Position numbers and translations under genes: made by a program. From assembly GCA_964462875.1 (NCBI GenBank), contig CAYWZQ010000001.1, forward strand, positions 132,910 to 196,909: a stretch of DNA of 64,000 nucleotides, written 5' to 3'. The notes under the pieces are model-generated. The model had not been told where the DNA came from, made no database searches, and worked only from the letters and a program-made list of their open reading frames with translations. This document shows, piece by piece, positions 14,569 through 45,604 of the stretch. Within the stretch, counting starts at the first letter, position 1; each line of letters starts with the position of its first letter. The DNA comes from an uncultured Nitrososphaerota archaeon. Its GTDB lineage: Archaea; Thermoproteota; Methanomethylicia; Culexarchaeales; Culexmicrobiaceae.

Positions 14569-16113
14569 TTAAAAGAGCATTAGAAACATCGGTGTTGGTA
14601 TGTAGATCATGTCATTACGCAGTCTTAATATATCTCGCGTTAGAACTATCTTACCTTTTTCAGGAACTATATGTGAAGGAGCTCCTCGATACTTTGATTC
14701 AATGATGAATCTATATTGAGCGTTTCCTTTCACAACACATAAGACGAAATCCGTTTCTTGCATTCCTTCTCTTGCTGGTCTATACATTAGAACTCTTTCA
14801 TATTCAACGCTTGGTATATGTTCGAATAACTGTTGAGCTAAAAGAAGATGAGCTGCTACGACACTCTCAACTAAATGACCTTTAAAGCTCGAGTCCCCAA
14901 CTATTTTCTTCGAATACTCAAATGGGTCGGGAATATTGTTGAGATATGAATATAATGCATGATATATGAATGGGTCTAGAACATAGTTCTTAGGCTTTCC
15001 TTGATAATTGGGTTTACAGCTACCATTTTCCCTCTCCTCTGGGTATGCAAAGAAGAATGTCCATGTAGTTCTAAGATAGTCCAGGTAACTTCTTAAACCA
15101 AAACGCCCTTTAGGTCTGGCATCTTCATTGCGACCAATAACCTCAGGTCGACATAGATCCAGAAGACCTGCAATCCTCTTAGGTTCTAAGAGAAAAGCTA
15201 GCACTCTTTTCAAATTCTCTGAGTCTAAACCAGCCTTCTCAGAATCCTTGACAAGTAGTTCCGCTACATCAACATAAAACTCTTTACTTATGTATTCATT
15301 CTTATAATATTCATCTATAGCTTTAGGATAGCCCCCGTGAATCAAGTATTCTTCGAACACTGTTTGGAGAAGTTGGAAATACTCGTCATATATTCTCCGG
15401 AAAGCCTCCGGAATTCTTCCTCGAGCAAGCTCCTTTAGTATCTCGAATCTTATTCTAGGAGTTCTAAGCTTGCGTAATGATAGGAACGAATCTATTTCCC
15501 GCCTAAGTGCTTCAACTACTTCTGCAAATCGTAATGGAACGTGAACTAGATTCCCTCCAAGGTTGAAGAGTTGTGCCAATCTGCCTTGCCTACCTCTTAG
15601 CTTACTAGCAGCCTCTGCCAAGTCCATAGAGTGACTACCAGCAGACACAATCTTCATACGCCCACTTTCAATTAAACCCATGTCATAGAGATTTTTCAGC
15701 GCTTGAGCCCATCCAGGATACATGGATGCTTCATCGAGAAAAACATACTTATCATTATTACTTGACATAGCTATGACTTCAAGAATCTCAATCAGTCTTA
15801 TATCTACCAGCCCTTCGTAGTCGAGTGAAATATAAAATATTGATTGAGGATTCACATTCTTTTCCTCGATGAGATACCTTATGAGGAGTTTAATTAATGT
15901 AGATTTACCTGCACGTCTAGGTCCCCGTATTGTGATTATACCATATGCACCCAGCTCAGCTATGTAACGTCTTAGATGGTAATAGAGTCTGGGTTCACGT
16001 CTAAGCATTGAATTGTAGAAGTTCTGAAGCAACGGGTCACGTTTATACCAGTACTTGTCTATCCACCAAGGATTATATTGCTTTAAAAGTTTCCTAAGTT
16101 CCCCGATGTTCAA
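14569..16113 (-). CDS. AAA+ ATPase, COG1373 / DUF4143 family
   Basis: N-terminal NPWW motif, Walker A GPRRAGKST, Walker B VFLDE. 514 aa. Confidence 0.7.
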   Translation of the reverse strand: MNIGELRKLLKQYNPWWIDKYWYKRDPLLQNFYNSMLRREPRLYYHLRRYIAELGAYGIITIRGPRRAGKSTLIKLLIRYLIEEKNVNPQSIFYISLDYEGLVDIRLIEILEVIAMSSNNDKYVFLDEASMYPGWAQALKNLYDMGLIESGRMKIVSAGSHSMDLAEAASKLRGRQGRLAQLFNLGGNLVHVPLRFAEVVEALRREIDSFLSLRKLRTPRIRFEILKELARGRIPEAFRRIYDEYFQLLQTVFEEYLIHGGYPKAIDEYYKNEYISKEFYVDVAELLVKDSEKAGLDSENLKRVLAFLLEPKRIAGLLDLCRPEVIGRNEDARPKGRFGLRSYLDYLRTTWTFFFAYPEERENGSCKPNYQGKPKNYVLDPFIYHALYSYLNNIPDPFEYSKKIVGDSSFKGHLVESVVAAHLLLAQQLFEHIPSVEYERVLMYRPAREGMQETDFVLCVVKGNAQYRFIIESKYRGAPSHIVPEKGKIVLTRDILRLRNDMIYIPTPMFLMLF

Positions 16114-16370
16114 CTTTTACTACACCTCTTTGCAAGTAGGACCAAATCCTTCTCTATGCGGCCAACCTCTCGTGCCAATTGCTCATACTTCTTCTCAAGC
16201 TCTTTGATACGAGTAATAAGGTCTCCATATTCAGCCTCTCCAATGAATTCTAGAACAAGTCTCTTCACTAGAGCTGGCACCGACAAACCTTGCTGTTCAG
16301 CAATCTTTCTCAGCTTTCCATACTGCTCTTCACTAAGATAGAATTTAACTTGTTTCAACCTACTCACCAT
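16110..16370 (-). CDS. ribbon-helix-helix (CopG/Arc-like) DNA-binding protein
   Basis: 86 aa. KFYLSEEQYGKLRKIAEQQGLSVPALVKRLVLE followed by a coiled-coil tail. 4-nt overlap with the ATPase gene. Confidence 0.5.
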   Translation of the reverse strand: MVSRLKQVKFYLSEEQYGKLRKIAEQQGLSVPALVKRLVLEFIGEAEYGDLITRIKELEKKYEQLAREVGRIEKDLVLLAKRCSKS

Positions 16371-18890: not shown

Positions 18891-19382
18891 TTAGGGTTCT
18901 ATATCAAAGGAAATTTCGAGGAGTTGTTTTGAAACTCTAAATCTCGTTTTCCTTATTTTGATGCAGCCTATGTATTTTGACGAGCTAGTATGTCGTTTAT
19001 TGCATGCATTTATATTCCATATACTACCATCAGTATCATAGACAATCACTATACTCAGCTCTCTAATATGCTCCGGTACTGGAAATAGATCGTAAATTAT
19101 ATTTCCATAGATCCTCTCAGCCTCATCCCTCGGAAGAACTTTAACTTCAATTTTAAGATCCTCCTCAATCTTCCTATTTGCAAGCTCCTCAATAGCTCTA
19201 ATCTCATCCGATGTTGGTTTTCGATTAAATTTAACAGTTAAGCGACCATGCTTACCATGCACATAAGTACTTGCAGTCCACATAGCATCAGAACCGAGAA
19301 CCTTGACAACAGCACCCTTAAGCACATGCAGAGCCGTATGGGTGCGCACCTCATCAGGATACACATCCACACAGCCAGACAT
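18891..19382 (-). CDS. alaX: alanyl-tRNA editing protein AlaX-S
   Basis: [20 protein letters not shown]...[13 protein letters not shown]...NACNKRHT...IKIRKTRF closely matches Pyrococcus AlaX-S. Start moved to the internal ATG; the track ORF extends to 19502 with an implausible hydrophobic leader. Confidence 0.7.
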
Positions 19383-19508
19383 AGCTCCACTAACAACGAC
19401 ATACGCTCCTTCAAATAAAAAAGTTTCCAAACCTCTATCAACAGTAAGAAGCATGGAAAGCAAAATTAACAAGTAAAGGAGAATGGCGAGCGCTGATGCC
19501 ATTAAGAT

Positions 19509-20564
19509 CTAATCTTCAACTTCCCGTTGAATACTCAAAGAATATTTATACACTAAATTCCCGTCAATCACATATAAGTCAGCATTATAATCATCAATTC
19601 TCCTCATTAGTACTGGCCTACCTAATCCCTCAGCTATTTTCCTTAAAGCATCAATACCATCAACATCAACCACCATGCTACTAGCCTCATCAATCGGAGA
19701 TCCACCAACCTCAATTAAGTAATCCCTTAAAGGCTTCACTACAGAATCAACAGTCTTCCTAGAAAACTTCCGCCTATCAGAGACGTAAATATAGGTTGCA
19801 GGGGCTAAGCAGAATAGGCCGACTCCTAAAACTACATATGAAATATTAAGCTTATTCCTAACATCTTCATTAATAATAATGCTCTTACCAGTAAGTTGCC
19901 CAGGCGCTCTATGCTCCAAATTTAAAATATTAATTACTCTATCACCAGCACCGTGTCTGAAATTTAACCTCAATGTATGATTAATTGGTAATCTAATCAT
20001 ACCATGCCTTGTAACTGATAAGGCAATTATATTGGCAATTAAAAGTAGATCGTGCTCACCCGAATACACTTCAATTTCATCCTCAATATTCCTGATTAAG
20101 GACAATAATTTACCAATATTAAAAGTAAAGTTCTCATTTATTACTACGGTATTATTACCCTTAACATTAAACTTAGGAGTAGTAAGAATAGTTTTCCTCC
20201 ACTTACCGGGGGATACTATGACCATTTTAAAGCTATAAGTTAATACTGTTGATGCAGGTTCACTAACCCTAAATGTAAAGCTATAATTTACATCAATAGA
20301 CCTAACTATGCTTAGGAAAAGTACTCCCTCGCCGGGGCCGAGCATGCTCGCATTATCATAAATTATGTTAGGAATTAAGTGAGCAACATAATTATACCGA
20401 CTGTAGCCTTCATAAGTACATAAAACACGAACTTTCTCCTCAACAACCGGCTCATTAAACAGCATTACAAGCGAAAACGCTGAAGAAGCTATCAGCGCAA
20501 TTGACAGAAGCAATAGAACTACGAACTTAATTTTATTATTTTTAGATAAAACCATGCACCTCAC
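19509..20564 (-). CDS. bitopic membrane protein (N- and C-terminal TM, extracellular glycosylated domain, cytoplasmic tail) in the TasA/SipW-like locus
   Basis: 351 aa. TM near residues 12-35 and 240-260, many N-x-S/T sequons. Confidence 0.4.
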   Translation of the reverse strand: MRCMVLSKNNKIKFVVLLLLSIALIASSAFSLVMLFNEPVVEEKVRVLCTYEGYSRYNYVAHLIPNIIYDNASMLGPGEGVLFLSIVRSIDVNYSFTFRVSEPASTVLTYSFKMVIVSPGKWRKTILTTPKFNVKGNNTVVINENFTFNIGKLLSLIRNIEDEIEVYSGEHDLLLIANIIALSVTRHGMIRLPINHTLRLNFRHGAGDRVINILNLEHRAPGQLTGKSIIINEDVRNKLNISYVVLGVGLFCLAPATYIYVSDRRKFSRKTVDSVVKPLRDYLIEVGGSPIDEASSMVVDVDGIDALRKIAEGLGRPVLMRRIDDYNADLYVIDGNLVYKYSLSIQREVED

Positions 20565-20624
20565 TCCAAAGATACATGATTAAAGGTAGAAGCAAAATTA
20601 GTATAAAAACTTTATGCAACATTT

Positions 20625-21251
20625 TCAGCCTCCCCCAATATTCCAGCTTGAAGTTTCAATAGTCACTGTGAATTTCAATTGATCAATTGAAGTACAGTTC
20701 TCAAATACAAATTTAAATAGTATTGGAAGCTTGCAATTAGGATCCAAAATTCTGGATATGAATATGCTATATGACGACTCATTTAGTGGAAACCTATATT
20801 TACCATAACTTAAATTGCTACATATCTTTTTAAAGTTAAAGCATTTACAATAACTCGTATAAGCCATATAAATCGTCATATAACCCTCATTTCCACCTAA
20901 AATCAAGTCAAATAATATACATCGAACTCTAATAGGCACAGTCCCTACATTCTTTACAATTAAGTAAAGACAGAAATAATCGCCCTCAGAAACATTATAG
21001 CACTCTACTTGAAGCATTAAATCACCAACCCTATCAACTGAACAATAAAAATTACTATTGCAACAACAGCATTTAGAACATGAATAAGCATTATAACATA
21101 TGATCTTGGAATGGGTTGAACCAACTTTTATTATACCCTGTATTTGCATAAAATCCCTCCAGCAACTATATGCAGCACCATTTATCATCAACACGATGAT
21201 CATGAAGACAAAAATGAGCAATAGTCCACGTTGTCTACCTGATCTACTCAC
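20625..21251 (-). CDS. Cys-rich SipW-cognate-type signal peptide protein (third paralog)
   Basis: Signal region LLLIFVFMIIVLMINGAAYSCWRDFMQIQG aligns with the YAHWSDRVTIQG of its neighbours. Shared KNVGTVP motif. CYNAYSCSKCCCCNSNFYC. Confidence 0.5.
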   Translation of the reverse strand: MSRSGRQRGLLLIFVFMIIVLMINGAAYSCWRDFMQIQGIIKVGSTHSKIICYNAYSCSKCCCCNSNFYCSVDRVGDLMLQVECYNVSEGDYFCLYLIVKNVGTVPIRVRCILFDLILGGNEGYMTIYMAYTSYCKCFNFKKICSNLSYGKYRFPLNESSYSIFISRILDPNCKLPILFKFVFENCTSIDQLKFTVTIETSSWNIGGG

Positions 21252-22507
21252 TTACACCACCTACCGAACTTCCTCCTCATCCTACGAGCATAATAGAAAG
21301 CTATTAGAACAGTTATCGAGGCAATAACTATTGAAAGCAAGTAATAACCATGAATAAAGCTGACAATAAATCCAATGCAGCGCTTCAAGTAAATTGAAAT
21401 CCAACCAATTTTAGGAATAACTAACAGCAACTTCCCCTTTACCTGACTCGGATGAATGGGATTGAAATCAATCACCTTATTAGCATCACCCTTAGTTATA
21501 AAACGACCACCCCTAATCTCCATAACTCTATGTAAGGTCATACCGCCATCCGAGAAATACAAAATTACATCGCCGGGCTTAATTTTGCTAGCTGGAACCT
21601 TAACAACAAGCGCTATATCGCCAACATCCATTGTCGGCCTCATACTACCACTCAAAACAACTGAAGGAAAAACACCAAGCAACCCAGTACTCAACCAAAC
21701 AGCAAAAACAAATGCCAAAACAACCACTATGAAACCAATAGGCCTATCCTTACTCCACCCACCTTTAAACTCAATTCTCAAGCCAGCACGCCTAAGAACA
21801 CTTAATGGAATAGCATTATCAATTACAATTAAACTCACAGTCGGGGCAACTACACCTATGAGCGATTCAAGACCCCAAGTCAAATCAGGGAGTATTGGCG
21901 AAAACCATTGAAACAATTTCAATGGAGCAAGATAAACTATTGAGCCTAATGGACCGGAGATAAAAGCTAAGTATGAAGCAAGCAAGTTAACTGCTAAGTC
22001 AGGAAGATATTTGGAACCTAAAAATTCAACAATTGAAAAGGGCTTAACTGGAGGATAAAGCATGCTTATTAAGGCGAAAGTTCTACTATAAAAAATAGAG
22101 ACAATTAAGATAGCTAAAATAAACTTCCTCTTGCCATAACTCCTCAAAATGCAAGACCTAGAAAATTCACTACCAATAAGAGAAGCTGAAATCATCATCA
22201 AATTGAGAATCACGTTAACTGGAGTTAACACAACTGGACTTCGACCGTACTTTGAAAATAAACCACCATCAATTTGCATTATTATTTGAAATAATGATGC
22301 CATTAAAGCAACTAATAAAACATAATTGTTAAAATTAAGTAGTAACTCTCTAAAATCACAAGACCATAAAGCTATTAAAGCTACACTTATCCAGCAAATG
22401 GATGGGAAAAAGTATGCAAAATATCCAGAAGGCTTATAGAGATACATTAAGATTTGAATTGCAATTAAAGCACAAATTAAAGGGACATTCCTATCCATGG
22501 AAAACAC
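21248..22507 (-). CDS. type I signal peptidase (S26, SipW/archaeal type) fused to an N-terminal polytopic membrane domain
   Basis: C-terminal boxes SGSMRPT, GD, HRV, GDAN. About 270-aa N-terminal multi-TM domain and a C-terminal TM. Confidence 0.6.
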   Translation of the reverse strand: MFSMDRNVPLICALIAIQILMYLYKPSGYFAYFFPSICWISVALIALWSCDFRELLLNFNNYVLLVALMASLFQIIMQIDGGLFSKYGRSPVVLTPVNVILNLMMISASLIGSEFSRSCILRSYGKRKFILAILIVSIFYSRTFALISMLYPPVKPFSIVEFLGSKYLPDLAVNLLASYLAFISGPLGSIVYLAPLKLFQWFSPILPDLTWGLESLIGVVAPTVSLIVIDNAIPLSVLRRAGLRIEFKGGWSKDRPIGFIVVVLAFVFAVWLSTGLLGVFPSVVLSGSMRPTMDVGDIALVVKVPASKIKPGDVILYFSDGGMTLHRVMEIRGGRFITKGDANKVIDFNPIHPSQVKGKLLLVIPKIGWISIYLKRCIGFIVSFIHGYYLLSIVIASITVLIAFYYARRMRRKFGRWCK

Positions 22508-22571
22508 CCCAATGGTGTTTAATGTAAAAAATAGGGAAAATAGAGGGTACTCTAAGCATCGGCTAACACTC

Positions 22572-23270
22572 CTATGCCTTATTCCACTGAACCGCCACTA
22601 CTTCAACGTATATCTTGTATGTATGGCACTCTTCTGCTTCCTGGTAGAATTCTAAGTCAATTTCACACTTATGAGTACGACACGGGTCGATCTGGTATGG
22701 CAGCTGATTTGTAACTTCAAGCCATATAACGGGTATATCAATACCTATATCGACAACTCCATTACCATTTACGTCCTCGTATAGATCCCCTATGTAATCT
22801 CCATCGGGATCATACCATAGCAATCTATATATCAAGTGACCTGTTGCATTCCTTTTTTCACCAGTTATATTGAAACCCACTAGAGATAGTGGTATTGTTC
22901 CAATATTATGCAACTTAAATGTTGTTCTAACCAAGTATTGTGGATATGCATTATCAACTACAATGACTAGTCTCTTATACCCCTTCTTTCCAGTATGTAC
23001 ATCTGTAATTTCATCTTCATACCAACTACTGCAATTGCCGACATTCTTACCTAGCCATTCCCCTTCATATATCTGTGAATTGTTCCAATAATACTCTATG
23101 CTATGTGGAGGCTCAACCCAATCGAATGCAAGAGTCAGACTTCCCATTTCAGCTGTACCTTGAATAGTAACTCTATCACTCCAGTGAGCGTAGGTAACGC
23201 CGATCACAGAGAGCACCATTATTAAAAGTAAAGAAAGGATGCCAGATTTTCGAGCGTTCATGTTCATCAC
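22572..23270 (-). CDS. TasA/camelysin-like secreted protein with SipW-cognate-class signal peptide
   Basis: ILSLLLIMVLSVIGVTYAHWSD. KLHNIGTIPLS motif. C-terminal ECHTYKIYVEVVAVQWNKA shared with the paralog. Confidence 0.55.
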   Translation of the reverse strand: MMNMNARKSGILSLLLIMVLSVIGVTYAHWSDRVTIQGTAEMGSLTLAFDWVEPPHSIEYYWNNSQIYEGEWLGKNVGNCSSWYEDEITDVHTGKKGYKRLVIVVDNAYPQYLVRTTFKLHNIGTIPLSLVGFNITGEKRNATGHLIYRLLWYDPDGDYIGDLYEDVNGNGVVDIGIDIPVIWLEVTNQLPYQIDPCRTHKCEIDLEFYQEAEECHTYKIYVEVVAVQWNKA

Positions 23271-23285
23271 CAGCCACTAGCCCGT

Positions 23286-23969
23286 CTATGCCTTATTCCA
23301 CTGTACGAAATCAAGCACCAAGCTGAATGTGTAAGTATGACACTCTTCTGCAGTTTGCTTGAAGTCTATGTCAACAACTACTGGATACTCATGGCATGGC
23401 TCAAGCTGCCAATCCTCCGGTACATAGGCAACTATCCTCACATTCATTACTTCTCCTGCTGGATCAACTAGTGCACCCTCAATTATCCATGCACCTATAG
23501 TATCGTTGTAGACCTCTATATCTACTCTAAAGGATAGATCCTCACCATCAGTTTCATCAAAACCAGAGAACGTAGTATTAACCAGTACTGCAGGTATCGT
23601 ACCAGCATTCTTCAATATAAACTCAATGTGTACATCCCATTGTGGATAAGCATTTTCAAATAACATAGTCAATTTCTTAGCAACCGTCTGTGGTGGTGTG
23701 TGATGCGTACTAGTCTCAAAATCGCTTAATGTAATAGTTGCATTTGCAACCCAAGGCTTGGATGGAGTGAAATCTTCTTCAGGAACACCATTAGTTGTCT
23801 CATAGTAAGTTAGTGAATCATTTAGAATACCTACTATAAGCTCGCCCATGTGAACGGTTCCCTCAATGGTGACAGTATCGCTCCAGTGAGCATAGGTTAC
23901 TCCGAGTACTGTTAGAGCAATTATTAGTAGTCCAAATGTGCTAAATAGACTCTTACTATTCAATATCAT
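23286..23969 (-). CDS. TasA/camelysin-like secreted protein with SipW-cognate-class signal peptide (paralog)
   Basis: LLIIALTVLGVTYAHWSD. ILKNAGTIPAVLV. C-terminal ECHTYTFSLVLDFVQWNKA. Confidence 0.55.
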   Translation of the reverse strand: MILNSKSLFSTFGLLIIALTVLGVTYAHWSDTVTIEGTVHMGELIVGILNDSLTYYETTNGVPEEDFTPSKPWVANATITLSDFETSTHHTPPQTVAKKLTMLFENAYPQWDVHIEFILKNAGTIPAVLVNTTFSGFDETDGEDLSFRVDIEVYNDTIGAWIIEGALVDPAGEVMNVRIVAYVPEDWQLEPCHEYPVVVDIDFKQTAEECHTYTFSLVLDFVQWNKA

Positions 23970-24144
23970 ATCACCTCTTATGTTCGGGCTATCATCGCCC
24001 AGGACCTACTGATCCTAGGCTTTAACGGGGGCTCCCGCTTAGTCCCCCGTGCAGGTTAGAATATGAAAATTTATTATGATTATAGATTTCGAATCAATTG
24101 ACCTGAAAATAAACCAATTGGACTAAAATATATAAAAATAAATT

Positions 24145-24492
24145 TCATTGAGGCCGCTTTAATTGCAATCGAATTAGAAGGGAATCCAGCTTTTTAAAGT
24201 CATCACTTAATCTGTATAATTTAATTTTCCTGTCACTCATGATTGAGTACTCGATTAATCCGATGTCTATGAGGTATTGGAGTTTATCTGCTGTTTTTGA
24301 ATATGATAGGCCTACTCTTCTTGCCAGCCTTCTTAAAGTTATTTCCTTACTTTTACATATTTCAACTACTATTTTAAATAGTAAGTCTTCATTGAAAACT
24401 CTTTTTGTAAGCTCCATTAGTAGTAGGGTTCGAGCATCAATTTCCCGTGAACTTAGCTCATTTATATTATGATCGGAGGGCTCGATTTTCAA
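24145..24492 (-). CDS. winged helix-turn-helix transcription regulator
   Basis: ITLRRLARRVGLSYSKTADKLQYLIDIGLIEY. Paralog of 24586..24867. Confidence 0.5.
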   Translation of the reverse strand: MKIEPSDHNINELSSREIDARTLLLMELTKRVFNEDLLFKIVVEICKSKEITLRRLARRVGLSYSKTADKLQYLIDIGLIEYSIMSDRKIKLYRLSDDFKKLDSLLIRLQLKRPQ

Positions 24493-24585
24493 TTTTTATC
24501 AAAACTAAATATTCGAATGCTTACGTTATTTAGTTCCGCTCCATTTGGGATATTATCAGACCATTTGGATGAGTGACTTATAAAC

Positions 24586-24867
24586 TCATGTTAGAATATC
24601 CCTAAGTTTTTGATATTTCTTTGAAAGTCTATAAACTTTTACCCTAGGACTTGCATAGAAATATTCCACAACTCCCTTCTCAACTAGGAAATCGAGATGC
24701 TTAGCTAAATTTGAATGCGAAATTCCCACTTTTCTAGCAAGCTCTCTTAAGCTTGCACCCTCAATTTTACATAATTCAACTATTATTCTAAATTTCACAT
24801 TATCCTTATACGTTTGCTTTAAAAATTCGACAAGCATATTTTCATAATTATGTAAATTAGAAGGCAA
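24586..24867 (-). CDS. winged helix-turn-helix transcription regulator (paralog)
   Basis: ASLRELARKVGISHSNLAKHLDFLVEKGVVEY. Confidence 0.5.
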   Translation of the reverse strand: MPSNLHNYENMLVEFLKQTYKDNVKFRIIVELCKIEGASLRELARKVGISHSNLAKHLDFLVEKGVVEYFYASPRVKVYRLSKKYQKLRDILT

Positions 24868-45492: not shown

Positions 45493-45604
45493 GCCGGGGT
45501 AGCCTAGTGGTAAGGCGCAGGCCTCGAGATCAAAAAGATAATGGGGCTAGAAAGCCTGTGCCCGCTCAGCGGGCTCGCGGGTTCGAATCCCGCCCCCGGC
45601 GCCA
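45493..45604 (+). tRNA. tRNA-Ser (anticodon CGA) with about 25-nt intron at the canonical 37/38 position and long variable arm
   Basis: GCCGGGG acceptor. Anticodon arm CAGGC-CUCGAG[intron]A-GCCUG. Variable arm UGCCCGCUCAGCGGGCUC. T arm GCGGG-UUCGAAU-CCCGC. CCA. Confidence 0.75.

Follow-up and report, generated by a model that had tools for sequence, protein, structure and literature searches.

In both prokaryotic domains, donor-strand fibers of the TasA/AbpX type are increasingly recognized as a common scaffold of biofilms, and their assembly has been described as chaperone-free. A dedicated signal peptidase encoded beside abpX was already noted in one study (PMC12518558), and a preprint of January 2026 reported, for bacteria and archaea alike, that AbpX has a dedicated signal peptidase I (SPase I) with ten transmembrane (TM) helices, not the usual two (bioRxiv 10.64898/2026.01.04.697558). 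The remark takes up a single sentence that gives the extra eight helices no role, and in the literature searched we found no other mention of a ten-TM architecture and no function stated for these helices. Here, we analyzed a 64,000-nucleotide (nt) stretch of DNA from an uncultured Nitrososphaerota archaeon of the Culexmicrobiaceae (contig CAYWZQ010000001.1, positions 132,910 to 196,909; the window hereafter, to which all coordinates refer), which carries such a peptidase gene at 21248..22507 on the minus strand, the strand of all other features of its locus. The gene is a member of this recently noticed AbpX SPase type and not a new type.

The assignment is based on the ten TM helices of the product, the adjoining genes for AbpX-like subunits, a DUF5305 gene, and homology to the SPase of Natronincola peptidivorans. 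The Natronincola cluster with an SLH anchor that is cited in the preprint corresponds to locus L025 of our survey, where an open reading frame (ORF) combining the N-terminal domain (N-domain; E = 6e-54) and the S26 peptidase domain (E = 7e-38) is followed by subunit genes, a DUF5305 gene, and the gene of an SLH protein; this ORF belongs to the same family as the window gene. Homology to the systems of the preprint was established through this locus, while the peptidase of Pyrodictium abyssi (WP_338249487.1) and its relatives were likened by description, being, like the window protein, TIGR02228-type enzymes with ten TM helices encoded beside AbpX-like subunits. The P. abyssi locus is a minimal one of two genes, whereas the window locus has three subunit genes and two winged helix-turn-helix (wHTH) genes. 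In the larger AbpX loci, genes for minor and tip subunits are accompanied by those for DUF5305 and a transcription factor, as here.

Other fiber-dedicated peptidases are more distant. Bacillus subtilis SipW, encoded in tapA-sipW-tasA, is likewise an archaeal/ER-type Ser-His S26 peptidase dedicated to fiber subunits of the TasA superfamily, and its substrates have an aromatic residue at P2′, as do the subunits in the window. However, SipW has N- and C-terminal TM helices only and lacks the eight-TM domain, and its operon has tapA, whereas the window locus has a DUF5305 gene and no TapA. TafD of the haloarchaeal and Thermococcales Tafi loci (PMC11821415, PMC12337348) is a fiber-dedicated S26 peptidase accompanied by DUF5305 (TafG) and a transcription regulator, as here, but its peptidase domain is N-terminal and is combined with an Ig-like domain at the C terminus, it has four TM helices and no eight-TM N-domain, and its substrates are of the DUF1102/TafA/E type and often Tat dependent. 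We therefore rejected membership in the TafD type, because the window protein consists of the eight-TM domain, TM9, the S26 domain, and TM10, with no Ig-like domain.

Domain organization and catalytic identity of the peptidase

The ORF at 21248..22507 starts with GTG, encodes 419 amino acids (aa), and is one uninterrupted frame with no internal stop codon. The initial annotation had proposed a signal peptidase domain fused to about seven N-terminal hydrophobic helices within the first 270 residues. The polytopic nature of this part held, but the count did not: AlphaFold 2 (AF2) helices and hydropathy together gave ten TM helices, with eight in residues 1 to 245, and the segment at residues 256 to 278 is the anchor of the S26 domain. 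The protein thus comprises an N-domain (residues 1 to 245; 21773..22507) with eight predicted TM helices, a basic cytoplasmic linker (residues 246 to 255) with TM9 (residues 256 to 278; both at 21674..21772), an S26 catalytic ectodomain (residues 279 to 367; 21407..21673), and C-terminal helices (residues 368 to 417) that include TM10 and are encoded with a basic cytoplasmic tail and the stop codon at 21248..21406. TM9, with conserved positions W271 and G275, is a canonical N-in/C-out S26 anchor and aligns to that of SEC11. AF2 models were obtained for the full-length protein (predicted local distance difference test [pLDDT], 87.6; predicted template modelling score [pTM], 0.79) and for the N-domain alone (pLDDT, 88.6; pTM, 0.87).

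Counting Lys and Arg per loop over 278 distinct family sequences, which also underlie the conservation values given below, produced a clean positive-inside pattern. The N terminus, loops L2-3, L4-5, and L8-9, and the C-terminal tail were assigned to the inside, and loops L3-4, L5-6, and L7-8 and the S26 domain to the outside; the loop ahead of TM9 is basic, with a mean of 6.4 Lys plus Arg. Topology prediction, which had been suggested as a check of the fusion, accordingly gave ten TM helices with the N and C termini in and the S26 domain out.

The gene product is a Ser-His-Asp S26B signal peptidase I of the archaeal/ER type with its active domain facing outward. Residues 260 to 385 scored above the curated threshold of TIGR02228 (sigpep_I_arch; 85.1 versus 51.85 bits), whereas the NCBIfam SipW model reached 50 bits, far from the 190 bits required of an equivalog. 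A profile built from 86 homologues found only SEC11C and SEC11A among Protein Data Bank (PDB) sequences (E = 9e-16 and 3e-15), and Foldseek with the full AF2 model retrieved SEC11A/C at E = 1.8e-4 and 3.8e-4, with template modelling scores (TMt) of 0.59 to 0.60. The three S26 boxes read from the sequence by the initial annotation proved to be correctly placed, with their codons checked: SGSMRPT at residues 286 to 292 (S288; codon 21644-21646), HRV at 326 to 328 (H326; codon 21530-21532), and GDANKVID at 340 to 347 (D341 and D347). These four residues align to the SEC11 boxes, with His in place of the bacterial Lys general base, and are conserved in 93 to 95% of the sequences; the values stay below 100% because truncated and S26-less entries are among the 278. 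Together with the family-model score and the Ser/His/Asp boxes, the N-in anchor directly before an extracytoplasmic domain of the S26 fold places the protein in the S26B class.

Spread of the fusion and conservation of its N-terminal domain

A search with the whole protein listed more than 120 collinear homologue clusters with 35 to 63% identity and 90 to 100% query coverage, and the named ones, from Bathyarchaeota, Nitrososphaeria, and Archaeoglobales, carry the label "signal peptidase I." With the N-domain alone, a search of 1.84 billion representatives gave 446 clusters (E ≤ 1e-3), of which 281 reached E ≤ 1e-10. Among the matches listed in this search, 146 representative clusters were new, and 128 of them also have the S26 domain; the other 18 comprise, apart from P0123, P0128, and P0136, which are described below, mostly fragmentary entries or ones that look frameshifted (P0124 and P0153). 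Scanning one genome per species, with the ORFs labelled by hidden Markov models (HMMs) built for this analysis, we found 41 loci, including some on complete chromosomes of metagenome-assembled genomes. All 41 have the N-domain and the S26 domain in a single ORF with genes for AbpX-like subunits alongside, and most have a DUF5305 gene. The archaeal loci are from Bathyarchaeia, Hadarchaeota, Thermoprotei, Ca. Culexmicrobium, and Ca. Methanosuratincola, and the bacterial ones from Chloroflexota, Clostridia (e.g., Natronincola and Geosporobacter), Syntrophomonadaceae, Peptococcales, and an actinomycete. Gene order is identical in L001, L002, and L004 and recurs in many other loci. The survey that had been suggested, of whether the fusion is conserved next to genes of the SipW-cognate type, thus found it to be so in both domains.

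The N-domain has no recognizable family, as was initially stated. Pfam gave nothing at E ≤ 1 with the N-domain, nor at E ≤ 10 with 27 members, and NCBIfam, exosortase and archaeosortase models included, gave no match at E ≤ 0.1. An HMM search of PDB sequences at E ≤ 10 was equally unproductive; across these profile searches there was nothing or noise, such as a single SPC25 match at E = 2. The fold search of the N-domain model against the PDB, also an early suggestion, produced no match at E ≤ 1e-3; the match with the highest template modelling score was APH-1 (score, 0.31; probability, 0.21), which is at noise level for helical bundles. An internal duplication of four plus four TM helices, suggested by "SP" loops after TM3 and TM7, was rejected, as hhalign of the two halves gave a probability of 0.1%. 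Mean-field direct coupling analysis of 264 sequences (effective number [Meff], ~206) for contacts of the N-domain helices with TM9 or the S26 domain yielded top pairs in TM1, the tail, and loops that are gap or alignment artefacts.

Conservation of the N-domain is strong at a few positions. E114, R117, and P204 are 100% conserved, and G185, P207, L206, Y192, N102, and W211 at least 96% conserved, with N102 and Y192 at 96 to 98%. E114 and R117 are the sole invariant polar residues; hydropathy and the positive-inside rule place this E-x-x-R (codons at 22157..22168) at the predicted cytoplasmic end of TM4, away from the outward active site. No Cys or His is invariant or near-invariant in residues 1 to 245, and no Asp is conserved there either. 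Two outward loops are rich in Pro and aromatic residues, L3-4 with FGKSPxSFTP and L7-8 with WFSPILPDLxWG, the latter corresponding to the W201-F-S-P204-I-L206-P207-D-L-T-W211 motif (codons at 21875..21907) in the predicted outer-face loop between TM7 and TM8. The AF2 model pairs two outward-facing β-strands of the N-domain, at residues 86 to 89 and 205 to 208, each only 3 to 4 residues long.

Exosortases and archaeosortases (EpsH, ArtA), to which the fusion had been loosely compared, are similar to the window protein in being polytopic and encoded beside the surface proteins that they would process. The analogy stands for architecture and no further: the N-domain has no Cys/Arg/His triad and, as noted, no invariant Cys or His; there is no match to the NCBIfam models or to Pfam Exosortase_EpsH; and the subunits in the window have N-terminal signal peptides, not C-terminal PEP-CTERM or PGF-CTERM signals.

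The N-domain also occurs without the peptidase. In P0123, P0128, and P0136, a linker of 45 to 55 aa connects it to a substrate-type signal peptide (AYPYWTET, AYSHWTDT, and AYSIWQQN) that is followed by a β-rich or dockerin domain. In P0123, Pro is at the predicted P1 position, so cleavage may be impossible. Such S26-less proteins are found in loci with wHTH and AbpX-subunit genes, L047 for P0123 and L048 to L050 for P0136, the latter being present on seven contigs, and a six-frame search of L047 to L050 found no S26 domain. The peptidase always carries the eight-TM module or, in rare cases, is replaced by it. Because S26-less versions occur in the wHTH and subunit context, the N-domain is a separable module tied to AbpX loci and more than an extended anchor.

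Some proteins have additional parts. The N-domain, S26 domain, and TM10 are continued by a signal peptide and a subunit or tip domain in L008, L009, L010, and L015 of Hadarchaeota and in P0014, P0046, P0106, P0130, and P0133; P0264 is a fusion of N-domain, S26 domain, and DUF5305, and P0182, likely bacterial, has LysM repeats after the S26 domain. These natural fusions support physical coupling of the parts.

The fiber operon around the peptidase gene

The peptidase gene lies in a codirectional cluster (19509-24867) of two winged-helix regulator genes, two subunit genes, the peptidase gene, a third subunit-like gene, and a DUF5305 gene, so that the whole 19.5- to 24.9-kilobase block of the window can now be named an abpX-type fiber operon. 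The subunit genes directly upstream encode 227 aa (23286..23969) and 232 aa (22572..23270), with signal peptides ending ...GVTYA|HWSDTVTIEGT and ...GVTYA|HWSDRVTIQGT, respectively. Both products matched AbpX in the PDB (9sj2/9rhp; E = 2.4e-5 and 2e-3) and TIGR04088 (cognate_SipW) at 22.7 and 19.1 bits, with a cut-off of 19. Subunits end in ...VQWNKA and have no C-terminal TM helix. The third, divergent subunit-like protein (208 aa; 20625..21251; signal peptide ...GAAYS|CWRD) matched the subunit HMM at E = 3e-30. The stop codon of the peptidase gene shares 4 nt with the GTG start codon of this gene (GTGA), and the peptidase and the subunit precursors are partly translationally coupled. With 16 Cys, including a CCCC run, the third protein differs from subunits 1 and 2, which have 2 and 4 Cys, and the proteins in orthologous position in related loci have 1 to 11; it could be a minor or tip subunit rich in disulfides.

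The subunits share their cleavage region. For the 123 subunit ORFs in related loci, the Trp motif served to anchor 65 distinct N termini from archaea and bacteria, which have in common G-x-A-Y-A|H-W-[ST]-[DE]-T-φ-x-φ-x-G-T-V, that is, an A-x-A site with an invariant Trp at P2′.

Downstream, the DUF5305 (TafG-like) gene (19509..20564; PF17231, 31.8 bits, cut-off 29) encodes a protein with two hydrophobic peaks, taken as two TM helices, that is a putative peptidase accessory subunit; this role has been proposed in PMC11821415 and in the AbpX preprint (bioRxiv 10.64898/2026.01.04.697558). Upstream, a winged-helix regulator gene (24145..24492; HTH_24 and HVO_A0114 matches) directly precedes the subunit genes, and a second one lies at 24586..24867 (HTH_24, E = 8e-9). 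HTH_45 genes hold the equivalent place in L001, L004, and L047. Related loci have a single HTH_45 gene and a divergent gene of 130 aa, as opposed to the two tandem small winged-helix genes in the window.

A few other features of the window were recorded. Six nt downstream of the DUF5305 gene, a 203-aa ORF (18891-19502, minus strand) matches only the editing-domain region of alanyl-tRNA synthetase/AlaX (TIGR03683 region 594 to 721; E = 2e-23), and both its context and its hydrophobic, signal-like start are unusual for an AlaX-type protein. An overlapping gene pair on the minus strand (16110-16370 and 14569-16113) encodes an 86-aa protein and then a 514-aa protein with a P-loop (GPRRAGKST). On the plus strand, an Rfam match of 54.9 bits at 45493-45601 marks a tRNA of 109 nt that is absent from the ARAGORN calls and is probably an archaeal tRNA with an intron.

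Candidate roles of the N-terminal domain

Judged from sequence and genomic context, the product is very likely the dedicated signal peptidase of the AbpX-like subunits encoded beside it. The three neighboring precursors would be exported by Sec with their signal peptides N-in, and the outward S26 domain, held in the membrane by TM9 and TM10, would cleave after the conserved A-Y-A. Cleavage would expose the N terminus H-W-S-D-T, corresponding to the donor strand segment in AbpX/TasA fibers. A Trp at P2′ would be the kind of residue that is poorly handled by general SPases and is handled by SipW for TasA, and its invariance would account for the presence of a dedicated enzyme in the operon. According to PMC10269814, an aromatic P2′ residue blocks LepB but not SipW, and the fiber-dedicated SPase TafD is genetically needed for pilin processing (PMC11821415).

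Taken as a whole, the explanation that we favor, as reasonably probable, is that of a dedicated S26B SPase of an AbpX/TasA-superfamily fiber operon with a noncatalytic accessory N-domain. For the N-domain itself, we tentatively suggest, as the likeliest of the roles considered, a built-in accessory scaffold: the eight helices might recruit or orient the signal-peptide helix of the precursor beside TM9 and might link the enzyme with its DUF5305 partner of two TM helices. The lack of conserved His, Cys, and Asp in the N-domain and the cytoplasmic location of E114 and R117 fit a scaffold better than a second enzyme facing outward. The outcome, a single chain with one partner, would resemble the multisubunit eukaryotic signal peptidase complex (SEC11A/C with SPCS1/2/3; 7p2p, 7p2q), the closest solved structure to the catalytic domain in both sequence and fold. 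In each system, extra TM helices and an accessory β-rich lumenal or extracellular subunit would surround a minimal Sec11 core, but the eukaryotic accessory helices are on separate subunits and have no sequence similarity to the N-domain, and the functional analogy is a putative one.

Several points weigh against this explanation. E114 and R117 are completely invariant, more so than is usual for a pure scaffold, and could belong to an active or binding site. The S26-less N-domain proteins in similar loci point to some role for which no peptidase in cis is needed. Mature AbpX produced recombinantly assembles by itself with Ca2+ (bioRxiv 10.64898/2026.01.04.697558), so that a role in assembly is not strictly required, and SipW and TafD function without such an N-domain.

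The initial annotation had proposed a docking or assembly platform, and such a role is plausible, the more so given the natural fusions and the occurrence of S26-less N-domain proteins in similar loci. A further reading is that the eight-helix domain is a module of new fold and the true conserved core of AbpX-type fiber biogenesis in archaea and bacteria, independent of the peptidase as in the S26-less versions fused to substrate-type signal peptides, and acts as a membrane receptor, nucleator, or anchor for the fiber, or as an unrecognized enzyme with a Glu/Arg pair at the cytoplasmic face. We regard this as doubtful; if true, it would be the first donor-strand fiber pathway with a dedicated polytopic inner-membrane assembly factor.

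The platform as originally conceived, a fiber anchor or nucleation site, appears unlikely to us. In this reading, the first subunit to be released by the nearby active site would insert its donor strand at the outward loops with FGKSPxSFTP and WFSPILPDLxWG, which would tether the fiber to the membrane and seed it there, a role loosely comparable to that of an usher or TapA. In its favor are the S26-less variants, in which the N-domain is retained in loci that are otherwise identical (P0123, P0128, and P0136, the last on 7 contigs), and the outward loops, as the outer-face motifs of highest conservation are those of L3-4 and L7-8. Fusions of the N-domain and S26 with a subunit point the same way, as does SipA of Streptococcus pyogenes (4n31, a Foldseek match), a protein of the S26 fold that is a pilus-polymerization factor according to its PDB title. 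However, in vitro, mature AbpX polymerizes by itself with Ca2+, SLH or LPXTG anchors are already available in bacterial loci, as seen in our survey and in the AbpX preprint (bioRxiv 10.64898/2026.01.04.697558 for both the polymerization and the anchors), the modelled β-strands are just 3 to 4 residues long, and the invariant pair of E114 and R117 is placed toward the cytoplasm.

It is improbable that the N-domain is a second enzyme, such as an intramembrane hydrolase clearing released signal peptides or a transferase acting on subunits or lipids, with E114 and R117, and perhaps N102 and Y192, as its key residues. These four residues are conserved across archaea and bacteria above many structural positions, and E-x-x-R is faintly like motif 1 (EExxxR) of the CPBP/Rce1 glutamic intramembrane proteases. 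APH-1, the top-scoring PDB match of the N-domain, was reportedly described by Pei and colleagues in 2011 as a distant CPBP relative, but its score of 0.31 (probability, 0.21) is noise for helical bundles, and Foldseek found no match at E ≤ 1e-3. The spacing of Glu to Arg differs from that of CPBP, there is no FxxxH or HxxxN motif and no conserved His, Cys, or Asp, and neither Pfam (E ≤ 10) nor NCBIfam gave a match. On motifs and family models, membership in the CPBP/Rce1/APH-1 group was rejected: of the motifs EExxxR, FxxxH, and HxxxN/D, the N-domain shows only E114-x-x-R117. An artefact, in which a frameshift or misassembly would have fused the gene of a membrane protein with that of an unrelated SPase and which would have refuted the initial annotation, is virtually excluded. 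P0124 and P0153 do look frameshifted past the N-domain, but nothing in the window points to such an error, and the single frame here, the homologues that are 35 to 63% identical over 90 to 100% of the query, 128 of 146 clusters, and all 41 loci agree on one gene.

The novelty of the finding is lowered by the preprint that already reports a ten-TM SPase I dedicated to AbpX (bioRxiv 10.64898/2026.01.04.697558). What this analysis adds is the exact limits of the domains and their topology, the residues that do not vary, the locus survey across both prokaryotic domains, the substrate motif, the lack of a known PDB fold for the N-domain, and its S26-less variants. In a minimal AbpX locus, the peptidase is the only dedicated factor, and eight of its ten TM helices, or four-fifths of the part within the membrane, belong to a conserved domain that has an invariant Glu/Arg pair and neither a known fold nor a known function. 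Candidates for its role are the selection of substrates, a thinning of the membrane like that by the eukaryotic signal peptidase complex, anchoring, and a second chemistry; knowledge of this role would show how these fibers are processed, timed, and perhaps attached to the membrane, and would tell whether prokaryotes have built a single-chain counterpart of the multisubunit eukaryotic complex.

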